This document shows positions 24,104-50,604 of a stretch of DNA of 64,000 bases, piece after piece (the stretch's first letter is position 1; each line of letters opens with the position of its first letter). This DNA comes from Firmicutes bacterium HGW-Firmicutes-16 (lineage in GTDB: Bacteria; Bacillota; Clostridia; Oscillospirales; Oscillospiraceae), in the NCBI GenBank assembly GCA_002841545.1, contig PGZZ01000010.1, positions 1-64,000 on the forward strand. Direction: 5' to 3'. The position numbers and the translations under genes are program-made. The notes under the pieces were generated by a model. It saw only the letters and a list, made by a program, of their open reading frames with translations. It was not told where the DNA came from and did no database searches.

Positions 24104-24154
24104 ATTCGCACCTCCCAAAAAGAATTAATAAGTATAGTATTGCACAATATTGTG

Positions 24155-29038: not shown

Positions 29039-29102
29039 AACCGGTATCCTGGAACTCGACGTTCCTTGATATAAAAATTTAATATTTATCGGAGGAAAAT
29101 CA

Positions 29103-30227: not shown

Positions 30228-30317
30228 GCCAGGTTATACTATCAAAGTTTTTGGGGCGCGGGCTGACCGCGCCCCATTTTAAAAAAATACTTATCATATT
30301 TCAAGGAGGAAATTACA

Positions 30318-31205
30318 ATGGCGGATAAAGATGGATTGAAGGTTGCGAAAGACTATCATATGGATTGTCCTTTTGCCAATACGAACGGATTCCACGTGAA
30401 GGGAGCCGGTAACCTCGACTGGGGCATGAAAAAGCACCTATCCAACATTTTCGACCCTAAAAGCGGCAACACAGTCATGTTTGCATTTGACCACGGTTAT
30501 TTTATGGGCTCCACTGCGGGTTTGGAACGGCTCGATCTTGTTATCCCGCCGGTGATTCCCTATGTTGATGTCCTGATGGGTACTCGCGGCGCACTTCGTG
30601 CCTGCATTCCGCCCGATAACCGCAAGGGCGTAGCGCTGCGCGTTACCTCAGGCTCCTCAATGCTCGACGAAGACCTTTCACATGAGGTCATTGCGGTCGA
30701 TATCGAGGACGCTATCCGCATGAACGCCGACTGCATGGCAGTGCAGACCTTCATCGGAGCGGACGGACAGCTCTCCAGTCTGGATAACCTTTCACGCTGC
30801 ATAAACCTAGGTCTGCGCTACAGCATACCCGTCATGGGCGTTGTAGCTGTCGGAAAGGATATGGAGCGCACGGATCGTTTCTTCAAGCTCGCAACAAGGA
30901 TACTGGCGGAGCTTGGTGCAAACATTGTCAAAACCTATTACTGTGAGAATTTCGAAGAGGTCGTTGCTGCCTGCCCTGTGCCGATTGTCGTCGCAGGCGG
31001 CAAAAAGCTGCCTGAGGACGAAGCGCTTACTCTCGCATATAACTCCATAAAGGGCGGAGCAAACGGCGTTGACATGGGACGCAATATATTCCAGAGCGCG
31101 CACCCAGTTGAAATGGCGATGTCCGTCCGCAAGGTCGTGCACGAAGGCTTCACAGATAAAGAGGCGTTCGAGTATTACACCGATCTTATTAACACAAAGG
31201 CCTGA
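30318..31205 (+). CDS. lsrF: Class-I aldolase family protein, LsrF-like 3-hydroxy-5-phosphonooxypentane-2,4-dione thiolase
   Basis: Near-collinear with E. coli LsrF. Ours reads MADKDGLKVAKDY..FHVKGAGNLDWGMKKHLSNIFDPKSGNTVMFAFDHGYF...VAGGKKLPEDEAL. E. coli reads [51 protein letters not shown]...IAGGKKLPEREAL. Confidence 0.8.
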   Translation: MADKDGLKVAKDYHMDCPFANTNGFHVKGAGNLDWGMKKHLSNIFDPKSGNTVMFAFDHGYFMGSTAGLERLDLVIPPVIPYVDVLMGTRGALRACIPPDNRKGVALRVTSGSSMLDEDLSHEVIAVDIEDAIRMNADCMAVQTFIGADGQLSSLDNLSRCINLGLRYSIPVMGVVAVGKDMERTDRFFKLATRILAELGANIVKTYYCENFEEVVAACPVPIVVAGGKKLPEDEALTLAYNSIKGGANGVDMGRNIFQSAHPVEMAMSVRKVVHEGFTDKEAFEYYTDLINTKA

Positions 31206-31950: not shown

Positions 31951-32655
31951 CTAAGCCCCCAGATAAGCCTTGCGGACTCTGTCGTCCTCTGACAGTGCCT
32001 TGGCGGAGCCCTCCATAGCAATAGTTCCGGTTTCCAGAACATATGCTCTGTCGGAGATAGCCAGCGCCATTTTCGCGTTCTGCTCAACCAGTAATATAGT
32101 TATGCCGCTTTCATGCAATTCCTGTATGATTGCAAAAATTTCTTTGACAAGGATGGGGGAGAGTCCCATTGAGGGCTCGTCCATAAGCAGCATTTTGGGG
32201 TTCGTCATCAGTGCTCGGCCTGTGGCCAGCATCTGCTGCTCGCCGCCGGACAAAGTTCCGGCCAGTTGCTTATATCGCTCTCTGAGCCGCGGAAAATGTG
32301 CATAGACCATTTCGAGGTTCTCGCTGATCTTTTTCTGGTCTTTTAGAATATATGCGCCCATCCTCAGATTCTCTTCCACAGTCAGTCTGGCAAAAACGTG
32401 ACGGCCTTCGGGAACATGAGCCAAGCCAAGATTTATGATTTTGTTGGCTTGCATTTTCTGCAGATTCTGACCGTCCAGCAATATTTCGCCTGTGGCGGCG
32501 GGCAGAAGACCGGAGATGGTGTGCAAAATCGTAGTTTTGCCGGCCCCGTTAGCACCGACAAGAGAGACCAGTTCGCCGTCGTTGACTTTGATGGAAATAC
32601 CCTTGATGGCGTGAATGGCTCCGTAAAAGACGTTCAGGTCTTTAACTTCCAGCAT
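31951..32655 (-). CDS. livF: Branched-chain amino-acid ABC transporter ATP-binding protein, LivF-like
   Basis: Walker A GANGAGKTT, signature LSGGEQQ. 234 aa. Confidence 0.85.
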   Translation of the reverse strand: MLEVKDLNVFYGAIHAIKGISIKVNDGELVSLVGANGAGKTTILHTISGLLPAATGEILLDGQNLQKMQANKIINLGLAHVPEGRHVFARLTVEENLRMGAYILKDQKKISENLEMVYAHFPRLRERYKQLAGTLSGGEQQMLATGRALMTNPKMLLMDEPSMGLSPILVKEIFAIIQELHESGITILLVEQNAKMALAISDRAYVLETGTIAMEGSAKALSEDDRVRKAYLGA

Positions 32656-32670
32656 TTCTCTAACCCCTCC

Positions 32671-33444
32671 TTATTCGCCCAGATAGGCCGCAATGACCTT
32701 CGGGTCTTTGGCTATCTCTTCCGGCAAACCGCTTGCAATCGTAAGACCGTAATCGATGACCTGAATGCGCTCGCATATGTTCATAACAAGGGACATATCG
32801 TGCTCGATAAGCAGAATCGAAATGCCGAAGCGGTCGCGAATAGCGTTGATGCACTCAAGCAGCTCGGCAGTTTCCGTGGGGTTCATGCCCGCGGCGGGCT
32901 CGTCTAGGAGAAGCAGTCTCATATCGGTTGCGAGAGCTCTTGTGATCTCAAGCTTACGCTGTTGACCGTAAGGAAGGTTCGCCGCCAATTGATCGGCCTT
33001 GCCCTCCAGCTTGAAAATGGACAGCAAATCCATGGCCTTTTCGGTCAGTTCGTGTTCAACTTTCCAGAATTTCGGTGTGCGGAACATGGCGTCTACCATA
33101 CCGTATTTTATATCCTTGGTGATCGCAGCCTTGACATTGTCGATAACAGACATCTGCTTGAACAGACGGATATTCTGGAAGGTGCGGGCAACACCCGAGG
33201 ACACAACCTGATGAGGCTTCTTGCCGTTAAGCACTTCGCCGTTCAGAATAACGGAGCCCACAGTCGGTAAATATACGCCCGTAAGCATATTGAAAACCGT
33301 TGTCTTGCCGGCGCCGTTCGGTCCAATCAGACCGACAAGTTCGCCTTCAAAAATTTGAATGTTAAAATCCTGTACTGCCTTTAGACCGCCGAAAGTGATG
33401 CCCAGGTTTCGTGTCTCAAGAACAGGCTTTTTGCTCTCAGTCAT
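32671..33444 (-). CDS. livG: Branched-chain amino-acid ABC transporter ATP-binding protein, LivG-like
   Basis: Walker A GPNGAGKTT, signature LPYGQQRKLEI (LivG-type). Confidence 0.85.
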   Translation of the reverse strand: MTESKKPVLETRNLGITFGGLKAVQDFNIQIFEGELVGLIGPNGAGKTTVFNMLTGVYLPTVGSVILNGEVLNGKKPHQVVSSGVARTFQNIRLFKQMSVIDNVKAAITKDIKYGMVDAMFRTPKFWKVEHELTEKAMDLLSIFKLEGKADQLAANLPYGQQRKLEITRALATDMRLLLLDEPAAGMNPTETAELLECINAIRDRFGISILLIEHDMSLVMNICERIQVIDYGLTIASGLPEEIAKDPKVIAAYLGE

Positions 33445-34585
33445 TCGATTTCGCCTCCTTGTTGCCCGCCTTCTGCAGAGCCTTCTTGGCTCGGTGTTCT
33501 TTTATGTCACGGACAAAGTTTAGAAGAGAAAATTCATAGGTGCCGAAAATACCTCTGGGACGGAACATAATAACCGCAATCAGGATAATAGCATACACCA
33601 GCATTGGATAAGCGAATATGCCGCCTAGGAAACCCGGCAGTGACTTTACCCAGAGACCGTTTTTGATTTGATAGTTTACAAAGAACATGACTATTGCCGA
33701 AACCACCGACCCTGTAAGCGAACCCATGCCGCCGAGCACAACCATTACAACAATGAAGGTGGAGTTCAATATTCCGCCGTTTGTGAAAGCAAAGGAGGAA
33801 GTCGAAAGCGTGGCGTTGGCGCAGGCATATAATGCTCCGGCTATTCCAGCAAAGAATGCTGAGAAGGTAAAGGTAAATATTTTATAATAGGAAGTGTTTA
33901 TCCCCGAGGCCGACGCGGCAATCTCGTCGTCACGTATTGCCTTGATGGCGCGGCCGTATTTGGAACGGATAAACATAAACATCATCGTAAGACAGATTAG
34001 CGTTACTATCAGAGCCACCCAGAGGTAAGTAACCTTGGACGCCGTGCCGAAACCCAACCCGTTTTTATAAAGAGACGCGGAGGCAGAGCCAAGGGAAAGC
34101 CCTTCCTGACCTGCAAAGGGTATGTTGTTTATGATATTCACGATTATCATGCCGAAACCGAGAGTGATAATCGCAAGATAATCGCCCTTCAGACGCAGGG
34201 CGGGGATGCCGACCAAAAGCCCGACGAGCGCAGCCAGAATACCGGCGGCTAGAATACAGCCGATTAGAACAAGAACAAAGGCTGGACCGGCTTTTTCAGT
34301 GAATACCCCAGCGCGTTGAAAGGCCAGAGAAATCAGAGCCGCCGCATAGGCACCGATTGCCATAAAGCCGCAGTGACCCAATGAAAGCTGACCCAGAAAG
34401 CCCAGTATCAGATTCAGCGAAGCCGCAAGTATTATCAGATAGCAGCACTGCCAGAGACTGGGGACAATAATTAGCCTGAACTGTTCGTTTCCGCCAAATG
34501 CCGATTTAATAAAGGCAAATGCAACTATTATTACGGCAATAACAGCGGTGTTGATAATATAGCCTTTTCCAGTTCTCTTTTTCAT
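33437..34585 (-). CDS. livM: Branched-chain amino-acid ABC transporter permease, LivM-like
   Basis: Polytopic permease overlapping livG and livH. Confidence 0.8.
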   Translation of the reverse strand: MKKRTGKGYIINTAVIAVIIVAFAFIKSAFGGNEQFRLIIVPSLWQCCYLIILAASLNLILGFLGQLSLGHCGFMAIGAYAAALISLAFQRAGVFTEKAGPAFVLVLIGCILAAGILAALVGLLVGIPALRLKGDYLAIITLGFGMIIVNIINNIPFAGQEGLSLGSASASLYKNGLGFGTASKVTYLWVALIVTLICLTMMFMFIRSKYGRAIKAIRDDEIAASASGINTSYYKIFTFTFSAFFAGIAGALYACANATLSTSSFAFTNGGILNSTFIVVMVVLGGMGSLTGSVVSAIVMFFVNYQIKNGLWVKSLPGFLGGIFAYPMLVYAIILIAVIMFRPRGIFGTYEFSLLNFVRDIKEHRAKKALQKAGNKEAKSND

Positions 34586-35502
34586 ACTTTCTCACCCACA
34601 TTCTTTCCAAGAATACCGGCAGGCTTAATGATCAGCACAATAATGAGAATCAGGAACACAAATGTGTCTGCCATACTGGAGCTAACGTAGCTTGTGGTAA
34701 AGGATTCCACGAGACCGATGATGAGTCCACCCAGCATTGCCCCGGGGATGATCCCGATGCCGCCCAGAACGGCAGCCACAAACGCTTTCAGACCAAGCAT
34801 CATGCCCATGGTTGTATAAACCTTGGGATACTGCGCCATATACATAAGAGCCGCGACGGCCGAAAGTCCGGAGCCAATGGCAAACGTCAAAACAATAGTG
34901 CGGTTGACATTAATACCCATGAGGATTGACGCTTCCTTATCCTCCGAAACGCAGCGCATCGCGCGACCCAGCTTTGTCTTTTGAGTGAACTGATACAGCA
35001 CAACCATGACGACTGCACTGATAACTATTGTCGAGACAGTGGTCCATTCCATTGTTACGCCTGCAATAGAAAATCCGCCCGTTGAAAAGATCTGGCTTGC
35101 AACTACAGGATTAGGCCCGATTGCGGGAATAGCCTGCGCAAGATTTTCCAGCAGCATGCTGACGGCGATTGCCGTAATAAGCGCGGTCATCGAAGTTCCT
35201 TTTTTCCTTATTGGACGGTATGCCACAAGTTCCGTGGTCATACCCACAAGTGCGCAGCACAAAATGGCGAAAACAACAGAGGTCCAGGCTGGCAGACCCA
35301 TGGCAAGTGCAAGCGGTATCGTGAAAATCATGGTGTAGCCGCCTACCATAATAAAATCGCCGTGCGCAAAATTGATGAGGCGGATGATGCCGTACACCAT
35401 GGTATAGCCCAGTGCCACCAAAGCGTATATACTGCCGAGCCGCAGTCCCACGATCAACGTCTGTATAAATGTACTCACGTTGTGTCCATTGCCACCTTTC
35501 AA
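34582..35502 (-). CDS. livH: Branched-chain amino-acid ABC transporter permease, LivH-like
   Basis: Polytopic permease with conserved LivH architecture. Confidence 0.8.
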   Translation of the reverse strand: MKGGNGHNVSTFIQTLIVGLRLGSIYALVALGYTMVYGIIRLINFAHGDFIMVGGYTMIFTIPLALAMGLPAWTSVVFAILCCALVGMTTELVAYRPIRKKGTSMTALITAIAVSMLLENLAQAIPAIGPNPVVASQIFSTGGFSIAGVTMEWTTVSTIVISAVVMVVLYQFTQKTKLGRAMRCVSEDKEASILMGINVNRTIVLTFAIGSGLSAVAALMYMAQYPKVYTTMGMMLGLKAFVAAVLGGIGIIPGAMLGGLIIGLVESFTTSYVSSSMADTFVFLILIIVLIIKPAGILGKNVGEKV

Positions 35503-35576
35503 TCAGAAAAACAGGGGAGGCGCGCCCATTTAAAGGAGCGCCCCCCGTTTTTCTTCTAAGAGTTATTGATAAATGC

Positions 35577-36800
35577 TTATGCCTGAGGAAGTTCCTTGAC
35601 CACGTCCACAAGCTTGGTTGTGACCGTAGTACCTTCAGAGGTGAAGGATATGATTGATGCGCCCTTGGTCGGAGTGCCGGAAGCATCAAGAGAGAAGGTG
35701 CCGGTTACGCCTGTATAGACTGCGGAGGTATCGGCCAGAGCGTCACGTACAGCAGTGGCATCAGTGGAGGCGGCCTTCTCGATAGCCTGCTTATACATAT
35801 AAACTGCGTCATATGCAAGAGCGGAGATGGCGTTCGGGGTGGCGCCGAATTTTGCTTCATAGGCTTTTACGAAAGACTGAACCTTATCAGAGGTGTCAGC
35901 TGGATCGTAGTGGTTGGTCCAATAGACGTCATTGAAGACGCTTAGGTCAGCGCCGTCTACGACATAGTCGGGAGTGCTGTCGTAGCCGTCAGCGCCCATG
36001 ATGATGCCCTTATAGCCGGCAGCACGAGCCTGGGTGACGATATAGGGTCCGATAACATCATAGTAATAGGGAGCATAGACGAACTCAACGCCGGCCTTTA
36101 CCATGGATGCAAACTGGTTGGTGTAATCCTGAACGTCCAAAGATGCGGTTGACTCAACGGCCTTAACTGTTACGCCGTATTTTTCGCAGGCGGTGTTGAA
36201 GGAGTCATACAGGCCCTTGGAATAAGTATCAGCTGCGCAGTACACAACGCCGACTTCGGTGTATCCGGACTGCTTTGCATAGGCAGCAGCGATAGCGCCC
36301 TGGAAGCTGTCAGCATAGCAGGCACGGAATACATAGTCATCCACAGTTGTGATGGAGTCTGCGGTGGCGGACGGTGTCAGAAGACAAACCTGTTCTTCGT
36401 TAGCTGCATCGGTGATAGCGGAGGTACAGCCGCTCGTTACGGAGCCGATGATGAGGCCGATGCCCTGAGAAACAAGGGAGTTGAATGCGTTGAGGCACTC
36501 AGTCGGGTCAAACTGATCGTCAGCGTTTACTATCTTGACCTGACTTCCGTTGATGCCGCCTGCGGCGTTGATTTCTTCAACAGCCAAATCGACAGCGGTT
36601 GTTACGGCGGAGCCGTAAGCTGCGAGTGAACCGGTGTTAGGGGAAATGGTGCCGATGGTGATTTCTCCGCCTGCGGCTGGTGTTTCAGCTGCATCGGATG
36701 CTGCGGGTGTGGCACTAGCTGCTGAGCCGGAGCCTCCGCAAGCTGCGAGGCTTAAGCACATGCAAGCTGCGAGCAAGAGACATGCAAGTTTCTTTTTCAT
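35577..36800 (-). CDS. livJ: Branched-chain amino-acid ABC transporter substrate-binding lipoprotein, LivJ/LivK-like
   Basis: Lipobox LAAC plus a type-I PBP (Leu/Ile/Val-binding) fold. RBS AGGAGGAAG. Confidence 0.8.
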   Translation of the reverse strand: MKKKLACLLLAACMCLSLAACGGSGSAASATPAASDAAETPAAGGEITIGTISPNTGSLAAYGSAVTTAVDLAVEEINAAGGINGSQVKIVNADDQFDPTECLNAFNSLVSQGIGLIIGSVTSGCTSAITDAANEEQVCLLTPSATADSITTVDDYVFRACYADSFQGAIAAAYAKQSGYTEVGVVYCAADTYSKGLYDSFNTACEKYGVTVKAVESTASLDVQDYTNQFASMVKAGVEFVYAPYYYDVIGPYIVTQARAAGYKGIIMGADGYDSTPDYVVDGADLSVFNDVYWTNHYDPADTSDKVQSFVKAYEAKFGATPNAISALAYDAVYMYKQAIEKAASTDATAVRDALADTSAVYTGVTGTFSLDASGTPTKGASIISFTSEGTTVTTKLVDVVKELPQA

Positions 36801-37165: not shown

Positions 37166-37801
37166 ATGCTGTTCGGAGATTTATCCAACAAGCCGCTGGC
37201 TGACGCGGCGAAACAGATGGTGCGTGACCCATCCAACTTCAACTGGACGTTCATAGCTATTTTTGCCATCGTGGTCATCATCTATGTAAACGAGATACAA
37301 AAAAAGGAGTATAAGGCTATAGCTGCGGCGCTGGCGCTTTACTCGGTGCATTGGTTCTATGAGATAACGAATGCTGTCATCAACCATTTTGCGGGCTATG
37401 CACTGTGGACAGTTTCGGCAGCGAGCACCTCTTTTATTCTGCTCATCGGCGTTTCGTGGGAATTGTCGATGATGTTCTCCATAGCTGGCTTTACTTCGAA
37501 GCTCCTACCTGATGACAAGGATAAAAAGATATTTGGCATCAACAACCGAATAGTTTTTGCCATAGGCTCTGCACTGATGTTCTCGGTGGTTGAGATATTC
37601 CTTGCTTGGACGCCCGCTTTTATATGGGTATTTCCTTGGTGGGGCGCGATTCCCGTGTTCATCACGACCTATATCCCGTTTTTCCTCGCGAGCTACCTTA
37701 TATATGACAAGAAGGCGAAAACACAGAAGACCTTCATCATCACGATGTTCGCAATCGACGCCGTGGCGCTTGCCGTGCTGATACCTCTGGGGATTATATA
37801 G
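37166..37801 (+). CDS. Hypothetical polytopic membrane protein
   Basis: 211 aa with 5-6 predicted TM helices. RBS AAGGGAGGA. No recognisable motif. Confidence 0.4.
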   Translation: MLFGDLSNKPLADAAKQMVRDPSNFNWTFIAIFAIVVIIYVNEIQKKEYKAIAAALALYSVHWFYEITNAVINHFAGYALWTVSAASTSFILLIGVSWELSMMFSIAGFTSKLLPDDKDKKIFGINNRIVFAIGSALMFSVVEIFLAWTPAFIWVFPWWGAIPVFITTYIPFFLASYLIYDKKAKTQKTFIITMFAIDAVALAVLIPLGII

Positions 37802-37810
37802 AAACCGAAT

Positions 37811-37858
37811 AAAAGCCTCGCCGTGATTTTGTGCTAGAAAATAGGCGAGGCTTTTTGT
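37811..37858 (+). terminator. Rho-independent terminator
   Basis: 11-bp stem aaagcctcgcc/ggcgaggcttt followed by tttgtatttt. Confidence 0.75.
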
Positions 37859-37892
37859 ATTTTGTTATAAACCTGCAAATCGAAAACAGTTA

Positions 37893-37922
37893 TTGACAAA
37901 ATGCGAATCCTGTTGTTATACT
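37893..37922 (+). promoter_or_regulatory. Sigma-A-type promoter for the T-box-vor operon
   Basis: TTGACA, 17-18-nt spacer, TATACT. Confidence 0.5.
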
Positions 37923-37929
37923 TTAAATT

Positions 37930-38192
37930 ACTAAAACTCAAACCAAAGGCGTTGACGGAGAGAGTAAGTTTCAATCGAACGTTCCAGCGAGCCGGGAATG
38001 GTGCAAGCCCGGTACAAGTAGTTTGAAACCGAAAATCACTCCTGAGCTGCGGACCGAACGGGAAACCAAGTAGGCTCCGACGGATTCCCCCGTCATAGGG
38101 AAGGCATATGATTGTACGCTTCAAACGGGTGGTATAGCGAAAGAGCTTTTTAAAAGGCTTTCGTCCCTTTTGTGGAACGAAGGTCTTTTTTT
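37930..38192 (+). promoter_or_regulatory. T-box riboswitch leader, probable isoleucine (AUC) specifier, with an intrinsic terminator
   Basis: T-box motif AAACGGGUGGUAUAGCG at 38123-38139. Antiterminator GGG[UGGUAUA]GCGAAAG...CUUUCGUCCC. Terminator stem aggctttcgtccc/ggaacgaaggtct plus U7 at 38154-38192. By analogy with glyQS (AAGAA-GGC-A-CUUC), the Stem-I elements GGAG-AGAGUAAG ... AAA-AUC-A-CUCC place the specifier at AUC, 38035-38037. Confidence 0.65.
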
Positions 38193-38220
38193 ATATCCAC
38201 TTTTATTACCGGAGGAAAAA

Positions 38221-38808
38221 ATGATGGCTACAAATGAGTTAGTCGAGATTCGCTGGCACGGTCGAGGGGGACAGGGAGCAAAAACAGCCTGTCTGCTGCT
38301 CGCGGAGGTGGCGGCGCTGGAAGGGAAATTCGTACAGGGTTTTCCGGAATACGGACCGGAGCGCATGGGCGCACCGATAACGGCGTATAACCGCATATGC
38401 GAAAAACGGTGTACCGTCCATTCAAACATCTACTATCCGAACTATGTGGTCGTTGTGGACGAGAGTCTGCTGGACAGTGTCAATGTCACTGCGGGACTAA
38501 AAGAGGGCGGAGCTGTGATTATCAACACGCCTAGCTCTCCCGAGGAAATACGTCCGAAGCTGAGTGGCTGGACCGGCAGGGTCAGCACAATTGACGCCCG
38601 CCGTATTTCGGAAGAGATTCTGGGAAAGAACTTCCCGAATACTCCGATGCTGGCTGCCGTCGTCAAGGTGAGCGGCGTTTTGGACGTTGAGCGTTTTCTA
38701 GCTGATATTGAAGATTCCTTCAGACATAAATTTGCGTCCAAGCCTCAGGTCATAGAGGGAAACATGGCGACACTCAAGAAATCCTTAGAGGAGGTGCAGG
38801 AAGGATGA
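38221..38808 (+). CDS. 2-oxoacid:ferredoxin oxidoreductase gamma subunit (Por/Vor family)
   Basis: N-terminus EIRWHGRGGQGAKTA is the gamma-subunit signature. RBS GGAGG. The track ORF begins inside the upstream terminator; ATG 38221 was chosen. Confidence 0.8.
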   Translation: MMATNELVEIRWHGRGGQGAKTACLLLAEVAALEGKFVQGFPEYGPERMGAPITAYNRICEKRCTVHSNIYYPNYVVVVDESLLDSVNVTAGLKEGGAVIINTPSSPEEIRPKLSGWTGRVSTIDARRISEEILGKNFPNTPMLAAVVKVSGVLDVERFLADIEDSFRHKFASKPQVIEGNMATLKKSLEEVQEG

Positions 38809-39113
38809 TCCATGCAAAGGATATTAACGAACGTACCCCGTGGGAGGAAATGACCCCGGGCGGTGAGATATATGAGCCGGGCACCGCAAGGGATTTTGAT
38901 ACAGGTACATGGAGAACAGACACACCCGTTTTCATTGCCGAAGCCTGCAAGCACTGTATGCTCTGTGTCCCGTTCTGTCCGGACAGCGCAATCCCCGTAA
39001 AAAACGGAAAGCGTCTTGAATTTGACTTTATGCACTGCAAGGGCTGTGGTATCTGCGTAACTGTCTGCCCCTTCGCCGCGATAAAAATGGTGTCCGGAGG
39101 TGATGCAGAATGA
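38805..39113 (+). CDS. 2-oxoacid:ferredoxin oxidoreductase delta subunit (2x[4Fe-4S] ferredoxin-like)
   Basis: Two CxxCxxCxxxCP motifs (CKHCMLCVPFCP, CKGCGICVTVCP). Overlaps the flanking genes. Confidence 0.8.
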   Translation: MIHAKDINERTPWEEMTPGGEIYEPGTARDFDTGTWRTDTPVFIAEACKHCMLCVPFCPDSAIPVKNGKRLEFDFMHCKGCGICVTVCPFAAIKMVSGGDAE

Positions 39114-40294
39114 GTATTTGCTTTTCCGGTAACGAGGCTGTAGCTTACGCTATGAAGCAGATAAATCCCGACGTTATGGGCGCGTTCCCGATAACTCCGT
39201 CCACGGAGATCCCCGAGTATTTCGCACAGTTTGTTGCGAACGGCGAGGTCAACACCGAGTTCGTGACCGTAGAGTCCGAGCACAGCTCAATGTCCGTGTG
39301 CATTGCGGCTGAAGCGGCTGGAGCCAGAAGCGTCTGCGCGACCTCCTCCTGCGGACTTGCGCTGATGTACGAAATGCTCTACGTCGCCGCGTCCGACCGC
39401 CTTCCAATAACGCTCGCCTGCGTAAACCGTGCGCTTTCGGGACCAATCAATATTAATAACGACCACTCGGATTCGATGGGCGCCCGCGATACCGGCTGGA
39501 TACAAATCTATGCCGAAAACAATCAGGAGGCCTACGATAATTTCATCATGTCCGTGCCTATAGGCGAGAGCGTGCGTCTGCCCGTTATGGCCTGTATGGA
39601 CGGCTTTATAACGAGCCACGCCGTTGAGAATATCGAGCTTTTAGAAACGGACTCCGTGCACGGATTCGTAGGGGCTTATGAGCCCGAAAACTATTTGCTG
39701 AAAAAGGAAAATCCTCTGGCTATAGGGCCATATGATATAAGCGCGTATTACATGGAGCACAAGGTACAGCAAGCCGAAGCTATGAAGAGCGCGAAGCAGC
39801 GCATACTCGAGGTGGGGACGGCGTTTGAGAAGCTTTCTGGTCGCAGTTACGGACTTTTTGAGGAATACCGTATGGAGGATGCCGAGCTTGCGATAGTCCT
39901 TATCGGCTCAAGTGCAGGAACGGCCAAGGAAGCGGTTGAAAATCTGCGCGAACAAGGTGTCAAGGCGGGACTTGTAAAGATAAGAGTGTTCCGTCCCTTC
40001 CCGAGTGAGGAGCTTGCGAAGGCTCTCGCCAATACCAAGGCAGTAGCAGTTTTGGATAAATCCGAGGGCTTTTCGGCAAACGGGGGACCTGTATTTGCCG
40101 AGACCCGCAGCGCCTTGTACGATTTGAAGGAACGTCCGTATCTTATTAATATCGTCTACGGTCTGGGCGGTCGTGACTTTAAAACGGAGGATGCCGAAAA
40201 GGTGTTCGCAAGACTTGCGAGAATCGCGGCTACGGGAGAGACCGGACTCGTATACACCCACATGGGACAAAGAACAAGGGAGGCGATAGTATGA
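39110..40294 (+). CDS. 2-oxoacid:ferredoxin oxidoreductase alpha subunit
   Basis: 394-aa Por/Vor alpha-subunit architecture. Overlapping start and stop. Confidence 0.8.
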   Translation: MSICFSGNEAVAYAMKQINPDVMGAFPITPSTEIPEYFAQFVANGEVNTEFVTVESEHSSMSVCIAAEAAGARSVCATSSCGLALMYEMLYVAASDRLPITLACVNRALSGPININNDHSDSMGARDTGWIQIYAENNQEAYDNFIMSVPIGESVRLPVMACMDGFITSHAVENIELLETDSVHGFVGAYEPENYLLKKENPLAIGPYDISAYYMEHKVQQAEAMKSAKQRILEVGTAFEKLSGRSYGLFEEYRMEDAELAIVLIGSSAGTAKEAVENLREQGVKAGLVKIRVFRPFPSEELAKALANTKAVAVLDKSEGFSANGGPVFAETRSALYDLKERPYLINIVYGLGGRDFKTEDAEKVFARLARIAATGETGLVYTHMGQRTREAIV

Positions 40295-41229
40295 ACACGG
40301 TTTATGACCTGAAGCGTGAGGTTGAAAAGCCCGCGCGTTTGACAGGTGGGCATCGCCTTTGCGCTGGCTGCGGAGCTGGCATCGTCGTGTCGGGAGTCCT
40401 CCGCGCATTGAATGAAGAGGACAGGGCCGTTGTGGTGAATGCCACCTGCTGTCTCGAGGTTTCAACCTTCATGTACCCCTACACCGCCTACACGGACAGC
40501 TACATACACACTGCCTTTGAAAACGCCGGGGCGACCTGCTCAGGAGTCGAAGCGGCATATAATGCGCTCAAGCGCCGAGGGAAGGTTGACGACACAGTTA
40601 AGTTCATCACCTTCGGCGGTGATGGCGGTACCTATGACATCGGATTTCAATCCCTTTCGGGAGCGATGGAGCGCGGTCACGACATGGTCTATGTTTGCTA
40701 CGACAACGAGGCCTATATGAACACCGGTATACAGCGCTCATCCTCAACTCCGCAGTTTGCCCGCACGACTACAACTCCCGTCGGTTCATCCAGACAGGGG
40801 AAGCTGCAGAACAAGAAAGACCTGACCGAGATACTGGTCGCTCACAACATCCCGTATGCGGCGCAGACCGCTCCTATGGGCAACCTTAAAGACCTGCACA
40901 CTAAGGCGCACAAGGCCATCTATACTGAAGGCGCATGCTTTTTGAACATACTTTCACCTTGTCCGCGCGGCTGGGATTACCCAATGGCAAAGCTGCCCGA
41001 GATTATTAAGCTTGCGGTCGACACCTGTGTCTGGCCTCTCTATGAGGTGGAAGAAGGTGTCTGGCGTCTGAGCTATACGCCGAAGAAAAAGCTTCCCGTA
41101 GAAGACTATCTCCGCTCACAGGGTAGGTTCAGACATATGTTCCAAAAGGGCAACGAGTGGATGCTCGAAGAAGCGCAGAAATATGTGGATCAGAAATGGG
41201 AGCGTCTGCTCGAGCGCACCGGCGGCTGA
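40291..41229 (+). CDS. 2-oxoacid:ferredoxin oxidoreductase beta subunit (TPP-binding)
   Basis: TPP/Fe-S motifs (CAGCG, GGDGG.YDIG) of Por/Vor beta subunits. Confidence 0.8.
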   Translation: MNTVYDLKREVEKPARLTGGHRLCAGCGAGIVVSGVLRALNEEDRAVVVNATCCLEVSTFMYPYTAYTDSYIHTAFENAGATCSGVEAAYNALKRRGKVDDTVKFITFGGDGGTYDIGFQSLSGAMERGHDMVYVCYDNEAYMNTGIQRSSSTPQFARTTTTPVGSSRQGKLQNKKDLTEILVAHNIPYAAQTAPMGNLKDLHTKAHKAIYTEGACFLNILSPCPRGWDYPMAKLPEIIKLAVDTCVWPLYEVEEGVWRLSYTPKKKLPVEDYLRSQGRFRHMFQKGNEWMLEEAQKYVDQKWERLLERTGG

Positions 41230-41315
41230 CAAAAGAATCGTAAAAAACATCTACCACTCGTCATGTGAATTATGGTATGATATACCATAAAACTGTAAAC
41301 AAGGAGGCTTTGTCT

Positions 41316-42233
41316 GTGGAAAATACAATGTTCACTAATGGTGTCATTTTATCCTGGCTTGAATATTTTTCGCGGAATGTTGATATCAGTCTAGCAAAAC
41401 TGAAAATGCTTGACATTACGGGGAACAACAAGAACCTCATTCCCGCAATCATGTGCAATCGAGCGGTGCTGGTTTTTACCGATGCAGGACATCCCGACAT
41501 TTTTTACGATATGTGGAATGCGGAGCTTGGAGACTGCGAAATTTGGTATAACGAGGGCTCGGAGCCGTCCGGCAATATGAGGCACGACAAGCTTTCCGAT
41601 ATGATAAACCGAGGAATCAACGCTTCCGCCGCCATGCTTATTTTGAATCCGAATGCCGCAACGAATTATCAGATAGGTATGGAAAACAGACGCTTTTCCT
41701 GCGGCTCGGTCAATTACGTTTGCAGAGAAGTTCGAGCTGTTATAATGAATAAGCTCAATCTCAGAGACGGGGACAATATCTGCATAATCTCCGGTGAGAG
41801 CATCGCAGTCGAAGCTGCCATGATAGCTTCCGAGGGCAGCGTCATCGCCGTCGAATATGACGGACGGGATCGCGACACCATGAAAGAGAATGTCGATAAG
41901 TTCGGATTAAATAATGTCTCGATTGCTGAGTCTCTCAAGAACGACACACTTTCTGGACTGCCGGTGCCGGACAAGGCATTCATAGTTGCTTCAAAGAAGC
42001 TCGGAGGCGAGATAAAGAGCCTGATTGCAATGAACCCCTACATGGATTTCGTTATCTACACGCTGGATTTCGAACTTCTGACCGAGATTCCCACTCTGTT
42101 CCGCGAGAGCGGTATTGAACGAACCGAGGCGATACACATCGAGGTGTCGCGCGTCAACAGCAAAAACATGGCGGAGCCCTTTCCGGCCCCGTGGCTTATA
42201 TCCGGAAAAAGAACAAAAAGCGAATATTATTAA
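41316..42233 (+). CDS. CbiE/CbiT (CobL)-like methyltransferase-fold protein with degenerate SAM-binding motifs
   Basis: C-terminal half is collinear with CbiT: DGRDRDTMKENVDKFGLNNVSI...LPVPDKAFI versus ERD.EAL.LIRRNAERFGV.NVE..LP.PDAVFI. However, the glycine-rich SAM loop reads ISGESIAVE instead of GAGSGS. GTG 41316 lies 8 nt after AAGGAGG. Confidence 0.35.
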   Translation: MENTMFTNGVILSWLEYFSRNVDISLAKLKMLDITGNNKNLIPAIMCNRAVLVFTDAGHPDIFYDMWNAELGDCEIWYNEGSEPSGNMRHDKLSDMINRGINASAAMLILNPNAATNYQIGMENRRFSCGSVNYVCREVRAVIMNKLNLRDGDNICIISGESIAVEAAMIASEGSVIAVEYDGRDRDTMKENVDKFGLNNVSIAESLKNDTLSGLPVPDKAFIVASKKLGGEIKSLIAMNPYMDFVIYTLDFELLTEIPTLFRESGIERTEAIHIEVSRVNSKNMAEPFPAPWLISGKRTKSEYY

Positions 42234-42246: not shown

Positions 42247-42274
42247 ACCGCCCTCAAAAGAGGGCGTTTTTTTT
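42247..42274 (+). terminator. Rho-independent terminator
   Basis: Stem cgccctc/gagggcg followed by T8. Confidence 0.8.
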
Positions 42275-45996: not shown

Positions 45997-47421
45997 TCAT
46001 TTCAGAACACTGATCGCATCCTTAATTGTCTTTTCGAAGGCTTCTCTGCCGTATTTATCGACCTGATCCTTATCCTTCTCGCCATGGGTGAGGCAACCAG
46101 CACCGGCTATACACCCGCCAGTACAGGCCATGCCCTCGATGAAGTTTGCATCCAGCTTTTTAGCTCGCAGGCGGAGCAGAGCGGCACGACACTCTTCGAG
46201 TCCGTCACAGGAAATGGGTTTGTAACTAAAGTCTGTTATGCCGTTTTCCTTCAGACCTTCTCGGACGGCGTCCGCAAGACCTCCGCTTCGGGCGAAGATG
46301 CGCCCGAAGTACGAGGCGTTATCCAAAACTTCCTCTTCAGCCGTTGTTATATCTACGCCCTTTCCGTCAAATAGCGCCTGAAGTTCTTCAAAGGTGATGA
46401 CGCTGTCGATATAGGGTCTGACCTCATCCTTGCGCATTTCGGATTTCTTCGCTGTGCAGGGGCCGATGAAAACGACCTTCGCGTCGGGATCTCTTGATTT
46501 TATGTATTTCCCCAAAATTGCCATTGGCGACAGGTTATGCGAGACGTGCCCCAGAAGGTCGGAAAATTCATGCTTAATGTAGCTTACGAAAGCAGGGCAG
46601 CAGGAGCTTGTTAGAAGTCCGCGCTCATTGAGCTCCCGACTTTCTGCGTCCGCAACCATATCGGCACCTAGAGCGGTTTCTACCACAGAATGGAAACCTA
46701 GCTGCTTTATGCCCGATACTACCTGACCGATTTTTGCGTAGTTGAATTGACTTGATATGGAGGGCGCAACAAGTGCATACACCTTGTAGTTCTCGTTGTT
46801 GCAGCTGTTTTTGAGAAGCCCGATTACGTCGAGAATTAACGATTTGTCCATGATCGCACCAAAGGGGCACTGATAGACACAGGCTCCGCAGCCAACGCAT
46901 TTGAGGTTGTTGATTTCGGCGGTCTTGTCCTCCGACATGCTTATTGCCTTGACCTTGCAGGCGTTTTCACAGGGACGCTTTCGGCTTACAATAGCGGTGT
47001 AGGGACAGACCTTTGCACAGCGTCCGCACTCGACGCATTTTGATTTGTCGATCCGTGCCTTCTGCTCGTGGTCAAAGACTATTGCTCCGCGCGGACAGGC
47101 ATCCTCGCAGCGGTGCGCGATGCAGCCACGGCAGGACTCCGTAATCTCGAAGCCGCCGACGGGGCACTCGTCACACGCGATGTCGATGACCTCAATAATA
47201 TTTGGATTTGACCTGTCTCCGCCCATCGCAAGCTTGACTCTTTCGCCGAGGATGGCTCTTTCCTTGTATACGCAGCATCTCATTGTCGGCTGTTTGCCCG
47301 GAACTATAGTTTTGGGAATGTCCATGACATTCTCGAGAAGTCTGCCCTCAAAGGCAAGCCTTGCGACCTCTGTCAAAACCTTATATTTCAGATGCTGTAC
47401 CTTTGTATCGAATTTTCTCAT
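45997..47421 (-). CDS. hydA: [FeFe]-hydrogenase HydA-like protein (two ferredoxin-like 4Fe-4S domains plus an H-cluster domain) with an atypical N-terminal ~70-aa region
   Basis: H-cluster motifs L1 TSSCCPAFV, L2 GPCTAKKSE and L3 EGMACTGGCIAGAG. Multiple CxxCxxCxxxCP motifs. Confidence 0.7.
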   Translation of the reverse strand: MRKFDTKVQHLKYKVLTEVARLAFEGRLLENVMDIPKTIVPGKQPTMRCCVYKERAILGERVKLAMGGDRSNPNIIEVIDIACDECPVGGFEITESCRGCIAHRCEDACPRGAIVFDHEQKARIDKSKCVECGRCAKVCPYTAIVSRKRPCENACKVKAISMSEDKTAEINNLKCVGCGACVYQCPFGAIMDKSLILDVIGLLKNSCNNENYKVYALVAPSISSQFNYAKIGQVVSGIKQLGFHSVVETALGADMVADAESRELNERGLLTSSCCPAFVSYIKHEFSDLLGHVSHNLSPMAILGKYIKSRDPDAKVVFIGPCTAKKSEMRKDEVRPYIDSVITFEELQALFDGKGVDITTAEEEVLDNASYFGRIFARSGGLADAVREGLKENGITDFSYKPISCDGLEECRAALLRLRAKKLDANFIEGMACTGGCIAGAGCLTHGEKDKDQVDKYGREAFEKTIKDAISVLK

Positions 47422-47463
47422 ATCGCGCCTCCGATTTAAGGCTAAGGGTGAAATCCCATTACC

Positions 47464-48642
47464 TTAAAAGTAGCTTACCTTGATTTTCTTTCCCATTTTC
47501 TTCAAACATTCCGCAAGCTGGTCTACAAGTCTCATTTTTATGCTGAAATTGATCGGCAGATTCGGATTTTGATGTGCCGGATTGACTGCCATACCCACGA
47601 AGAAGTTTATATCCGTGGCTTCCTCAAAAAGCAGCCGTGCAATAAGTGACGCTCCATCCTTTTTATAGCCCCAGACCTTATAAGACTCGTTGTCTTTCAG
47701 ATAATCCTGCGAGTAAGTGAGCACCTTGTTAATTGTAATTACGCCCTCGGTTACAAGGTCGATTCCTTCGCATTCCGCAGTCGGCGGAATGTCGTTGTCG
47801 AAGTATTCAAGCTTTGTTCGCAGCGGTTTATGCAAATATTCGGACGCGATGGTCGAGGTCGTACCGCCGCAGACGATGTGCTTTCCCTCCTTGGAGAAGA
47901 ATAGGGACATCATCCGACCGCATTCGCTCGGATCGGAGGGAGGACCTATCACGAGATTCATCGGCTCTCTTTTGCGAATTTTTACGGTGCAAACCGTGGT
48001 GTCGTCGCCCGGCCTACCGCCGTAAAGGCTGTTGCATTCGTCAAGAAGCATTGTCGTCAAAGTTTTTGCTGTGAAGCCGATGTGAACGAAAGTTTTTACA
48101 AAATCGATGATGTTCTCACGTTTCCAGCCCAGATTCAGCGTCACACCGATTCCGGCATGGGGAGCACCATCGCTCAAAGCAATGAAAATATCGTCCTCTT
48201 TAATGCGTATCTTTGATTTTAGTATCTTTTTACCCGCTATATCAATCGTTTCGGTCGGGTAGTCGATGTTTTCACCGCCACGAAGCAGGATGACTTTGGG
48301 ATTGTCATATTGAATCAGTTCCGCCTCGGTGCCGTTCACAATGTGGATAATCGTAAAGGTCGAGTAGGCGACGCCGCGCACTGAGCACACGGGCAAAGTC
48401 TGCGCAATGGTTTCGACACACTCTTCGATACTCATGCCCGCCGCCATCATCGTTGAGATAATCTTTGATGTCAAAGTTGAGAGAATGCTCGCCTTGACGC
48501 CGCTTCCAAGCCCGTCGGCAAGGACAATTACCATGGAATTCTCACCGTGCTCGACGACCTCAACATGGTCGCCGCACAGCTCTTCTCCGAATTTGTTGAG
48601 GCTGCTGCAGCCTATATCCGCGCAAAGATTATTCATCTCCAA
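47464..48642 (-). CDS. PP2C-type (SpoIIE/RsbU-like) serine phosphatase fused to a ~190-aa C-terminal domain of unknown function
   Basis: N-terminal PP2C-like core (VIVLADGLGSGVKASILS... DDIFIALSDGAPHAG). Start overlaps the hydS stop. Confidence 0.6.
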   Translation of the reverse strand: MEMNNLCADIGCSSLNKFGEELCGDHVEVVEHGENSMVIVLADGLGSGVKASILSTLTSKIISTMMAAGMSIEECVETIAQTLPVCSVRGVAYSTFTIIHIVNGTEAELIQYDNPKVILLRGGENIDYPTETIDIAGKKILKSKIRIKEDDIFIALSDGAPHAGIGVTLNLGWKRENIIDFVKTFVHIGFTAKTLTTMLLDECNSLYGGRPGDDTTVCTVKIRKREPMNLVIGPPSDPSECGRMMSLFFSKEGKHIVCGGTTSTIASEYLHKPLRTKLEYFDNDIPPTAECEGIDLVTEGVITINKVLTYSQDYLKDNESYKVWGYKKDGASLIARLLFEEATDINFFVGMAVNPAHQNPNLPINFSIKMRLVDQLAECLKKMGKKIKVSYF

Positions 48643-50308
48643 GCGACTCCTTCAATTTCGTGAGAGCGATCTTAGTCTCAGCGGTGGTTTCGCCCAGAAG
48701 CGAAGCGATTTCCTGAACCACGCGCATCTGCTTTTCAATGACCTTGTCGGTTATCTCTATGGTTTTAAGGCTGATTTCCTCTTTCTTCTGACGCTCGGTC
48801 TCTTCGTCGGTGACGTCGCGCAGTATGCACAGCAGCATGCGGTAAACCTTGTCCAGAACAATGGTCTGCTCAATGTATTTTTTGTACTCGGCAAGATATA
48901 ACCTGCTATTGCGCAGGGATCTGCCAGTTCGCAGTACTTCCGAAAAGGCGGCGGGCTCAAGTATGCATACGACGTTTGCTCCCACGATATCCGAAGCGCT
49001 TTTAATATTAAGTATGTTTAGCGCGGCGGGATTAATCTGCTGGACTTCAAGACTCTCACTCAGAACGATGATGCCGTTGGGGCTGTTCCGAAGGATATTT
49101 GACGAAAAGGTCTCGGCCTTGTCCTTCAAAAACGGGGTGCACATCGAGAGTTCTGCCTTGCCCTGAAATACCGCTATCGCTTTTTCACGGCAGGAGTTGT
49201 AACCGCAGCTTCCACAGTTGAGCTCGTCCTCGGGAGTGTTTTTGCCCATTTTGAGTAAAATCTCGCTGAGCTGAAGCTCGTTGGGATAGGTCTGGGGGTG
49301 AACAAGGGACTCAAACGTTCTTGATATGCTGTCTTTCGAGGGTGCGTTCACGGTGAAGTCACTCCAGCCCGCAAATTTGCTGACAGCAATATAGTCCTGC
49401 AAGGGTGCGTGACGGGTGCTGCTCATCGCCGGACCACCGATACAGCTGCCAACACAGGAGGACATTTCGACAAAGCATCTTGTGATATTGCCAACCGAAA
49501 TATCGCGCAAGGTGCTAATGCAGTTTTCTTGACCGTCAACTGAAAAATAGCTATATTCCTCCGAAACGCAGTCCATGGACTTCAAGATGCCGCCGGAAGT
49601 CGGGAAGATCCGCGTGCGTCCATTTTCACTTGAGTCGTCTGCCTGTGAGACAGGCTCGATGCCTTCCGACTTGAGCCAGTTTGCAAGCTCGTCGAAGGTC
49701 AGCGCGCAGTCGACATCGCAGGGAAATTCGTCCGCTTCATATTTCTTTGAAATACAGGGGCCAATGAAAACAGTTTTTGCCTCGGGGTATCTGCTTTTTA
49801 TATCGCGGCAGTGCGCCACCATCGGAGAGACGACCTTGGCAAGGCGGGAGATAAGCTCCGGAAAATGCTTCTGTATCATGAGATTGACGGAAGGACAGCA
49901 GGACGAGATGATAATCTCCTGCTCACCGCACTTTATGAGTTCTTCATATTGCTTTTTCACTATCACGGCACCGCGCGCGGTTTCTTCCGCGGCGCAAAAG
50001 CCAAGCTTTTTGAGCGCCTGTTCCATACCGCCAATGCCAATCCCGGGGAAAGCGGCGGCAAAGGACGGCGCAAGACTGACGATGACGGGTTCACTCCCGC
50101 GAAGCAGAGCCTTTGCCTTATCGATATCGTCCCTGACAACCTTTGCGTTTTGGGGGCAGACGATGAAGCACTGACCGCACAGAATGCATTCGTCGGCAAT
50201 AATGTGGGCCTGATTCTCGGAAAAACTTATGGACTTTGTCGGGCAGTGCCTAATGCACTTATAGCAGTTTTTGCAGTTGGCTTCTTTTAGACGTATATAA
50301 TCTGACAC
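48629..50308 (-). CDS. hydS: Sensory [FeFe]-hydrogenase HydS-like protein: Fe-S domain, H-cluster domain and C-terminal PAS domain
   Basis: H-cluster-like motifs ISSCCPSV, GPCISKKYE and EMSSCVGSCIGGP. Additional CxxCxxC clusters. C-terminal PAS-like region (NSPNGIIVLSESLEVQQINPAALNIL...). Start was set at GTG 50308, which has a GGAGG RBS 8 nt upstream. The longer track ORF would overlap the upstream ferredoxin gene. Confidence 0.75.
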   Translation of the reverse strand: MSDYIRLKEANCKNCYKCIRHCPTKSISFSENQAHIIADECILCGQCFIVCPQNAKVVRDDIDKAKALLRGSEPVIVSLAPSFAAAFPGIGIGGMEQALKKLGFCAAEETARGAVIVKKQYEELIKCGEQEIIISSCCPSVNLMIQKHFPELISRLAKVVSPMVAHCRDIKSRYPEAKTVFIGPCISKKYEADEFPCDVDCALTFDELANWLKSEGIEPVSQADDSSENGRTRIFPTSGGILKSMDCVSEEYSYFSVDGQENCISTLRDISVGNITRCFVEMSSCVGSCIGGPAMSSTRHAPLQDYIAVSKFAGWSDFTVNAPSKDSISRTFESLVHPQTYPNELQLSEILLKMGKNTPEDELNCGSCGYNSCREKAIAVFQGKAELSMCTPFLKDKAETFSSNILRNSPNGIIVLSESLEVQQINPAALNILNIKSASDIVGANVVCILEPAAFSEVLRTGRSLRNSRLYLAEYKKYIEQTIVLDKVYRMLLCILRDVTDEETERQKKEEISLKTIEITDKVIEKQMRVVQEIASLLGETTAETKIALTKLKESLGDE

Positions 50309-50345
50309 TGGATATTCCTCCGTTTCCGCACGTTTTGGAACAAGC

Positions 50346-50585
50346 TCAGAGCTTTGCAAGAACTTCCTTTTCAAAGAAGCTTCGAACGCCATCGGGGCTG
50401 AGTGAATGGATTGTTTCATCAATCTTGACACTGACCCCGCTCTGGCAGGCACCAAGACAGAAGGTTCCGATGAGCTCAACCTTGTCCCCAAGACGGTTTT
50501 CCTCTATTAGCGCCTGAAGCTGCTCCACGATCTGCCTTGAACCTTTAAGGTGGCAGGAGCTTCCTATGCAAACAGTTAGTTTCAT
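50346..50585 (-). CDS. Thioredoxin-like [2Fe-2S] ferredoxin
   Basis: 79 aa with four Cys in C..SC...........C...C spacing (CIGSSCHLKG...FCLGACQ), typical of Trx-like 2Fe-2S ferredoxins. Confidence 0.6.
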   Translation of the reverse strand: MKLTVCIGSSCHLKGSRQIVEQLQALIEENRLGDKVELIGTFCLGACQSGVSVKIDETIHSLSPDGVRSFFEKEVLAKL

Positions 50586-50604
50586 TTCAGTCTCCTTTTA
50601 CAAT

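Follow-up and report, generated by a model that had tools for sequence, protein, structure and literature searches.

Organization of the locus

The stretch analyzed here, referred to below as the window, comprises 64,000 nucleotides of the Oscillospiraceae genome HGW-Firmicutes-16 (contig PGZZ01000010.1, positions 1 to 64,000 of the forward strand). Between 37893 and 42274 it carries a leader RNA of the T-box type, the genes for a four-subunit 2-oxoacid:ferredoxin oxidoreductase and a fifth open reading frame (ORF5). The leader is a real and conserved transcriptional T-box specific for isoleucine (Ile), and the transcription unit that it heads consists of the following features.

37893-37922 (+): sigma-70-type promoter, near-consensus, TTGACA, 18-nt spacer, TG-extended TATACT; 11 of 12 consensus matches
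37943-38171 (+): T-box leader RNA; full-length RF00230 match and covariation on 38 orthologous leaders
38035-38037 (+): specifier codon AUC (Ile); loop GAA-A-AUC-A at 38031-38038, in the Rfam register
38127-38139 (+): T-box sequence GGGUGGUAUAGCG; UGGU bulge at 38130-38133
38152-38196 (+): intrinsic terminator, hairpin (38152-38189) and U7; RNAfold -17.8 kcal/mol
38221-38808 (+): gamma subunit, 195 aa; TIGR02175 PorC_KorC 210 bits (cut-off 81), Pfam POR; GGAGG ribosome-binding site at 38212-38216
38805-39113 (+): delta subunit, 102 aa, ferredoxin-like with 2x[4Fe-4S]; TIGR02179 PorD_KorD 96.8 bits (cut-off 60), Fer4
39110-40294 (+): alpha subunit, 394 aa, PITP substrate-binding motif; POR_N, PFOR_II
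40291-41229 (+): beta subunit, 312 aa, thiamine pyrophosphate (TPP) and [4Fe-4S] sites (GGDGG...NEAYMNTG); TPP_enzyme_C
41316-42233 (+): ORF5, 305 aa, truncated CobL-like protein; GTG start 8 nt after AAGGAGG (41301-41307)
42249-42274 (+): operon terminator, strong hairpin after ORF5, CGCCCTC-AAAA-GAGGGCG (42249-42266) and T8

The promoter is the sole promoter-like site within 37700 to 38300, and the leader, about 290 nt long, has the GGAGG ribosome-binding site and the ATG at 38221 as its 3' end. The four oxidoreductase genes are joined by overlapping stop and start codons. Family models and Pfam domains assign every subunit of the Por/Vor subfamily (gamma, delta, alpha, beta) and agree with the gene order given in a first-pass annotation of this DNA. 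That annotation ended the region at 41229 and so missed ORF5; because neither a terminator nor a credible promoter is found between beta and ORF5, ORF5 belongs to the transcription unit, which extends to 42274.

The leader is a T-box with an isoleucine specifier

Positions 1 to 219 of the Rfam model RF00230 align to 37943-38171 (+), with E values of 9e-20 in a local scan and 1.3e-17 in a scan of the whole window. The match covers Stem I (GA/K-turn, AG bulge, distal loop and specifier loop), Stem II, the IIA/B hairpin, Stem III and the antiterminator. In the Rfam alignment, the consensus places of Stem I are filled by UGA/GAG, AGAGUA, CAGCGA, the GGUGCAA loop and the GAA S-turn, in line with the K-turn and AGUA-like elements noted on first pass; Stem II, the IIA/B hairpin and the T-box sequence are also at their consensus places. 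The score of this match, 87.5 bits, is 5.5 bits below the Rfam gathering score of 93, which is a curation threshold and not a structural feature. Accordingly, a default Rfam scan of the whole window does not list the leader, which was found in E-value mode; the single T-box listed is another one at 21179-21437 (-). The RF00230 scan proposed in the first-pass annotation thus returned a full-length match but, strictly taken, no hit above threshold. We nevertheless accept the leader as a T-box, because the E value and the comparative evidence described below outweigh the threshold.

The specifier AUC at 38035-38037 stands in the specifier-loop position, as had been proposed. The 3' side of the loop reads GAAAAUCA and is followed at once by the closing helix CUCC. 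By the TBDB rule, the codon occupies positions 2 to 4 counted from the 3' end of the specifier bulge (PMC7778990), and AUC obeys this rule as well as the Rfam register. Two neighboring registers were considered and rejected: the first base of AAU (-1) takes all four nucleotides among the orthologous leaders, and UCA/UCC (+1) would abut the helix without a 3' purine.

Downstream of Stem III, the T-box sequence predicted on first pass is present; a tRNA with discriminator A73 would fit it, its ACCA end pairing with the UGGU bulge. The antiterminator spans 38127-38167. Since its 3' arm doubles as the 5' arm of the terminator hairpin (38152-38189), the two folds are mutually exclusive, as had been claimed, and both are backed by covariation. 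A simple terminator scan did not flag this hairpin, and the minimum-free-energy fold of the whole leader is uninformative (z = -0.28), as expected of a bistable RNA.

The leader is conserved in front of the same genes

Relatives of the alpha subunit with 72-91% identity were collected from 80 species-representative genomes; seven loci had too little upstream sequence, leaving 73 usable ones. The relatives occur in Oscillospiraceae, Syntrophomonas and other Syntrophomonadaceae, Peptococcaceae, Desulfitobacteriaceae and Pelotomaculum propionicicum, as well as in Clostridium viride DSM 6836, Butyricicoccus, Lachnospiraceae, Eubacteriaceae and Anaerovoracaceae. The orthologous genes are headed by this leader in 67 of the 73 loci; the arrangement reported on first pass, a T-box directly before the oxidoreductase genes, is more than a chance occurrence. 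Leader-bearing loci come from Oscillospiraceae, Syntrophomonadaceae, Peptococcaceae, Desulfitobacteriaceae, Pelotomaculum, Clostridium viride, Butyricicoccus, Lachnospiraceae and others. In 66 of them the leader was recognized by a GGTGGTA..GCG motif immediately preceding gamma, some 1 kb ahead of alpha, and the 67th leader (locus L079) was found by Rfam at 57 bits. No leader is present in six loci: Desulfosporosinus Tol-M, two metagenome-assembled genomes (MAGs) labeled Proteobacteria, one labeled Desulfosudis, L067 and L071.

The orthologous leaders can be aligned over their whole length. All 66 that are readable (65 aligned ones and L079) have AUC as the specifier, without variation; the base before it may be A, G, U or C, and the base after it is mostly A, with a few C. 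Covariation was analyzed by imposing the T-box fold on an alignment of 38 diverse leaders, with slid partners and 500 shuffles as controls. The fold pairs 92% of cells, compared with 33-47% when partners are slid by one to three columns, and compensatory changes occur in 18 of 43 pairs; none of the 500 shuffles reached the observed values. Pairing in the Stem I helices reaches 69-100% of cells, 12 of their 21 pairs being compensatory; for the antiterminator helices the figure is 94-100%, and for the terminator 87%, with 8 of 15 pairs compensatory. Stems I and II, the antiterminator and the terminator all carry compensatory changes. Stem III contains an A-C mismatch (alignment A2, columns 207/218, equal to 38106 and 38117 of the window) in 9 of the 38 leaders, including that of the window; the other 29 have A-U or G-U at this place. 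The RNA architecture, the specifier, the operon structure and their conservation can all be read directly in the sequence.

Leader identity between this Oscillospiraceae genome and Syntrophomonas or Peptococcaceae genomes is 76-84%. Such similarity between distantly related Firmicutes suggests that the cassette, riboswitch included, has moved horizontally among them. Copies with 81-84% identity are also seen in MAGs labeled Chitinophagales, Proteobacteria and Desulfosudis (L017, L048, L051, L055), of which L017 keeps the T-box and L048, L051 and L055 have none; they represent either horizontal transfer out of Firmicutes or mis-binned contigs. A plasmid search returned only a distant Peptoclostridium homolog, with neither T-box nor ORF5, and hence gave no evidence of the cassette on a known plasmid.

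The oxidoreductase resembles pyruvate enzymes

The subunits were scored with NCBIfam equivalogs for PorA/PorB (NF040682, NF008819) and for the 2-ketoisovalerate enzyme (NF006232, NF008818). Alpha scores 471 bits with PorA_Arch (cut-off 550) versus 346 with VorA (cut-off 646), and beta scores 350 bits with PorB (cut-off 405) versus 294 with VorB (cut-off 405). For delta, the pyruvate-enzyme model gives 92 bits versus 63 for the ketoisovalerate-enzyme model (cut-off 166). The pyruvate synthase models are thus preferred throughout, and the cut-offs of both families are missed. The closest solved structure is the four-subunit pyruvate:ferredoxin oxidoreductase (PFOR) 9bt4, with 322 bits for alpha (9bt4_B) and 259 bits for beta (9bt4_C); oxalate oxidoreductase comes second.

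The roles of pyruvate-site residues in the Desulfovibrio africanus PFOR were reportedly described by Chabriere et al. in 1999. We take Thr31, Arg114, Leu121, Ile123, Ile843 and Asn996 of that enzyme to be its pyruvate-binding and methyl-pocket residues. The aligned positions (T31, R114, L121, I123, I843 and N996 in 1b0p) read T, R, I, I, V and N in the cassette enzyme and are identical to those of 9bt4, which leans against a preference for branched-chain substrates without being decisive. Neither the vor label nor, as it was stated on first pass, the conversion of 2-methylbutyryl-coenzyme A (CoA) to 2-keto-3-methylvalerate is supported by these residues and the family scores. The proteins of the operon are not unusually poor in isoleucine (6.3% versus 7.8 +/- 2.4%).

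ORF5 is a CobL-derived protein linked to the oxidoreductase

ORF5 consists of the C-terminal half of a CbiE domain and a CbiT-like class I methyltransferase fold. About 2900 relatives of ORF5 at ~80% identity are spread across distant taxa; none has Pfam domains, and many polar residues are invariant. Its distant relatives, retrieved by exhaustive search, are CbiE-CbiT (CobL-type) proteins of about 400 aa, which ORF5 matches from their residue ~110 on. The glycine loop for S-adenosylmethionine (SAM) binding is degenerate, IIS-G-ES compared with DIGAGSAS, being two residues shorter and lacking the Asp, and the GGSGG of CbiT reads ASPR or ASKK in the ORF5 family. ORF5 scores below the CbiT family cut-off (TIGR02469, 43 versus 78 bits), and generic and Pfam methyltransferase profiles do not match it, unlike true CobL relatives. 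No cbi or cob genes occur in the annotated section of the window, where the neighbors of ORF5 are the oxidoreductase genes. The name "precorrin-6B methylase," given to ORF5 and its ~2900 relatives by transfer, is probably wrong, judging from the missing start of CbiE, the degenerate SAM loop and neighbors that belong to the oxidoreductase and not to cobalamin synthesis.

A protein of ~305 aa of this family directly follows beta in 54 related loci, and it adjoins the oxidoreductase even when the order is rearranged, being upstream in L066 and divergent in L069. In most loci of the gut clade the cassette is limited to the T-box and the four oxidoreductase genes, ORF5 not being adjacent, and the downstream genes there (DAHP synthase, prephenate dehydrogenase, SpoVT and others) are unrelated. 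The gene contexts of the cassette vary: 119 pooled flanking genes contain no enriched function, the commonest being a CoA-transferase (4 of 119), and beyond this CoA-transferase neither ilv genes nor acid-activating enzymes were found among them as enriched partners. The cassette is therefore self-contained, and in the gut clade the four oxidoreductase genes stand alone behind the T-box.

In three Syntrophomonadaceae or Gelria loci (L038, 21-2651; L047, 307-2696; L060, 46-2552), a second, paralogous oxidoreductase beta gene is found just ahead of the T-box cassette. After this gene comes a CoA-transferase of the acetyl-CoA hydrolase/transferase family (L038, L047) or an AMP-forming acyl-CoA ligase (L060), and the pair could be an acid-activation module. 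ORF5 relatives of ~50% identity without an adjoining oxidoreductase were seen in L081 (5422-9190) and L083 (562-2234); their neighbors are Rrf2, SufBD, SufC and a CsoR-like repressor in one locus and a rhodanese in the other. Such neighbors give a faint hint that distant ORF5 relatives are connected with Fe-S or sulfur metabolism, three loci being too few for more.

Proposed mechanism and alternatives

The transcription start would lie near 37930, a few bases downstream of the -10 box. With ample isoleucine, tRNA-Ile would be charged and unable to stabilize the antiterminator, and the hairpin at 38152-38189 with its U-run would halt RNA polymerase ahead of the coding region. Under isoleucine shortage, uncharged tRNA-Ile would pair through its anticodon GAU with the AUC specifier in Stem I and through its free ACCA end with the UGGU of the T-box bulge, so that the antiterminator would form and the operon would be read through to the terminator at 42249. 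The products would be a TPP- and Fe-S-dependent oxidoreductase of four subunits and the CobL-derived protein. Working as a synthase, the enzyme would convert an acyl-CoA, CO2 and reduced ferredoxin to a 2-oxoacid that is a precursor of isoleucine only. The preferred reaction would be that from propionyl-CoA to 2-oxobutyrate, which would then enter the ordinary IlvBN/C/D/E steps.

We infer tRNA binding, the direction of catalysis, the substrate and any role of ORF5 from these features. The enzyme is most likely carboxylating, because a switch that opens under isoleucine starvation should raise the isoleucine supply; to this extent the reductive, isoleucine-forming role suggested on first pass is retained. 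That a tRNA-Ile-specific, transcription-attenuating T-box controls a five-gene cassette acting as a synthase, preferably from propionyl-CoA to 2-oxobutyrate, is in our judgment an evenly balanced proposition. The propionyl-CoA route is favored, with modest confidence, because of the pyruvate-like scores and pocket residues, because regulation is strictly by isoleucine and because 2-oxobutyrate is the natural analogue of pyruvate with one more carbon; regulation by isoleucine alone fits 2-oxobutyrate as a compound that leads to isoleucine only. Ferredoxin-dependent formation of 2-oxobutyrate from propionyl-CoA and CO2 is documented biochemically (Buchanan 1969, Eikmanns 1983 and Monticello 1984, all via PMC7476758). 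No dedicated native gene for this carboxylation is assigned in PMC7476758 or PMC12879463, and the latter, a 2026 engineering study, used Moorella nifJ for the step.

Several points weigh against this proposal. The leader scores below the gathering threshold, and no tRNA gene, tRNA-Ile included, lies in the 64-kb window. All subunits stay below the NCBIfam equivalog cut-offs, so that the enzyme is certified neither as a pyruvate nor as a ketoisovalerate enzyme, and the pocket comparison covers few positions and contains no ketoisovalerate-enzyme sequences. ORF5 has no place in the simple model. Moreover, carboxylation of 2-methylbutyryl-CoA to 2-keto-3-methylvalerate is the classical route of rumen anaerobes (Robinson and Allison 1969, via PMC2812497), and C. 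sporogenes is reported to use both propionate and 2-methylbutyrate (Monticello 1984, via PMC7476758).

This rumen-type route, in which a ketoisovalerate-type oxidoreductase runs in reverse and 2-keto-3-methylvalerate is transaminated to isoleucine, is the main alternative explanation of the cassette, one that we consider less likely than not. Control by an Ile-only T-box fits it equally well, and the route, documented in rumen anaerobes and inferred for M. ruminantium (PMC2812497), is independent of the other ilv enzymes and would suit a self-contained cassette. Many carriers come from gut, digesters and sediments, where branched-chain fatty acids occur, and in a few loci of Syntrophomonadaceae a gene for an acyl-CoA transferase or ligase adjoins the paralogous oxidoreductase just upstream. 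Alpha, beta and delta, however, score lower on Vor than on Por models, and a pyruvate enzyme is the closest match both in solved structure and in the mapped pocket residues. Characterized ketoisovalerate enzymes are reported to accept all three branched keto acids, so that control by valine or leucine would be expected too, yet all 66 specifiers are for isoleucine. On this evidence, propionyl-CoA carboxylation fits at least as well as the 2-methylbutyryl-CoA route. The same family scores and closest structure would speak for an ordinary pyruvate:ferredoxin oxidoreductase or pyruvate synthase, whose pyruvate would be raised by the Ile T-box for citramalate formation (pyruvate and acetyl-CoA) or for acetolactate-type condensations. 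We find this quite improbable: pyruvate is a hub metabolite for which control by a single amino acid would be odd, such anaerobes usually own other pyruvate oxidoreductases (paralogs adjoin the cassette in L038, L047 and L060), an unregulated homolog exists in P. acidaminophilum, and the Ile specifier is strictly kept in 66 of 66 leaders.

The alternatives that give ORF5 a part start from its co-transcription with the oxidoreductase, its position after beta in 54 loci and its adjacency in the rearranged L066 and L069. ORF5 might be an essential partner of the oxidoreductase in a new pathway to isoleucine precursors, in a unit that spreads horizontally. It could be a repurposed C-methyltransferase or decarboxylase, acting for example from pyruvate to 2-oxobutyrate or from 2-oxovalerate to 2-keto-3-methylvalerate, or else a new fifth subunit that drives the enzyme in the carboxylating direction; we regard such a partnership as improbable. 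A more specific, two-step version, in which the oxidoreductase makes pyruvate from acetyl-CoA or 2-oxovalerate from butyryl-CoA and ORF5 C-methylates it to 2-oxobutyrate or 2-keto-3-methylvalerate, appears very improbable. The class I methyltransferase fold, ~80% identity across distant taxa and many invariant polar residues are consistent with it, and the carriers are largely metabolizers of butyrate or valerate. SAM-dependent beta-C-methylation of 2-oxoacids has precedents in SgvM, MppJ and GlmT, and MppJ is among the fold matches of ORF5. Against this stand the SAM glycine loop shortened by two residues and without its Asp, the replaced GGSGG and the failure of generic methyltransferase profiles that do match true CobL relatives. 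In addition, ORF5 does not adjoin the T-box and four genes in most gut-clade loci, its more distant relatives occur on their own next to Suf/Rrf2 or rhodanese genes, and drawing on SAM for the methyl group of an amino acid needed in bulk would be costly. Finally, the sub-gathering score and the hairpin unflagged by the simple terminator scan would agree with a decayed or chance T-box-like sequence without regulatory function, an idea to which we give almost no credence in view of the E value of 1.3e-17 over the full model, an invariant specifier and a leader kept in 67 loci, whose helices (Stems I and II, antiterminator and terminator) show compensatory changes.

Comparison with known systems

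The leader has the same full architecture, from Stem I to Stem III, as the transcriptional T-boxes of Firmicutes (RF00230; e.g., the Ile leaders of ileS and ilv), and it shares with them the specifier loop GAA-N-codon-purine, the UGGN bulge and a competing terminator with a U-run. The specifier AUC, commonly used for Ile, follows the rule of C at the third position (PMC7778990). Structurally, the RNA is a typical T-box in all features tested and falls short only of the score threshold (by 5.5 bits); the Stem III A-C mismatch is conserved in a sub-clade. What differs is the cargo, which is neither an aminoacyl-tRNA synthetase nor a classical ilv/leu gene nor a transporter. No ferredoxin oxidoreductase target is found in the T-box surveys PMC2494555 and PMC3766115 with their supplements, and none is mentioned in the main text of the TBDB paper (PMC7778990), in agreement with the unusual target pointed out on first pass. 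Full-text searches returned no link between a T-box and an oxidoreductase, and an earlier listing in Vitreschak et al. 2008 or in RegPrecise or TBDB tables is possible. The combination thus appears to be undescribed, the regulatory class and the enzyme superfamily each being already known.

The cassette enzyme shares with PorCDAB and 9bt4 the four subunits, the domains, the PITP, Arg, TPP-binding and Cys motifs and the mapped pocket residues. It differs from PorCDAB in falling under the PorA/PorB cut-offs, in its Ile-specific control and in being linked to ORF5 instead of PorE/PorF-type polyferredoxins. VorDABC of Pyrococcus, Thermococcus and Methanothermobacter belongs to the same superfamily and has the same subunit set, and its reversal is the classical explanation for branched-chain amino acids made from branched-chain fatty acids; the cassette enzyme, by contrast, is far under the Vor cut-offs and regulated by isoleucine only, not by valine or leucine. 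The 2-oxobutyrate synthase activity of strict anaerobes (Buchanan 1969; Eikmanns 1983; Monticello 1984) is likewise ferredoxin-dependent and yields a precursor of isoleucine only. It is known only as an activity, which the operon may encode; Ile-specific induction of a pyruvate-like enzyme would predict 2-oxobutyrate synthase activity. Compared with CobL and CbiE-CbiT proteins, ORF5 lacks the first ~100 residues of the tetrapyrrole-methylase domain, has a degenerate SAM loop and falls under the CbiT cut-off, and its family forms a tight clade of its own (~80% identity) that is tied to the oxidoreductase, with no cobalamin genes nearby.

That propionate or 2-methylbutyrate can be reductively carboxylated on the way to isoleucine has been known from biochemical work since 1969; for the carboxylation step, engineering studies still rely on a general pyruvate oxidoreductase. 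The cassette, which recurs in dozens of anaerobes, provides first gene candidates for making isoleucine through carboxylation of short fatty acids. An invariant Ile specifier before one oxidoreductase clade (66 leaders from at least six named anaerobe groups) serves as a built-in functional label that nominates these genes. It would also extend T-box control to a ferredoxin-dependent, CO2-fixing enzyme, and the similarity of the leader between distantly related Firmicutes suggests that riboswitch and genes form a mobile metabolic module.

Other features of the window

A complete branched-chain amino acid ATP-binding cassette (ABC) transporter operon of the LivJHMGF type lies just upstream of the cassette on the opposite strand (31951-36800, -), and no T-box was detected before it. 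Between the two, 37166-37801 (+) encodes a conserved 211-aa protein without a family match; L001 and L002 have an ORF of the same size at this position, that of L002 being 94% identical to that of L001.

The second T-box, at 21179-21437 (-), scores 101.4 bits, above the gathering score. Its specifier loop reads GAA-G-UUC-C, and by the same register its specifier is read as UUC (Phe). The gene behind it (19306-20919, -) encodes a 537-aa sodium:solute symporter of the SSS family, similar to PutP/PanF, which is predicted from this arrangement to be a transporter of phenylalanine or aromatic amino acids. An lsr-like autoinducer-2 locus occupies 22538-31205, with an LsrK kinase (746 bits, above cut-off), an LsrR-like regulator, an ABC transporter (ATPase, two permeases and a binding protein) and a DeoC/LacD-family aldolase. 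At 45997-51249 (-), two [FeFe]-hydrogenase-like genes, one with an extra C-terminal Fe-S domain, surround a SpoIIE/PP2C-type phosphatase gene next to a Rex-like redox repressor (CoA_binding and Put_DNA-bind_N), and the group looks like a sensory-hydrogenase regulatory module.

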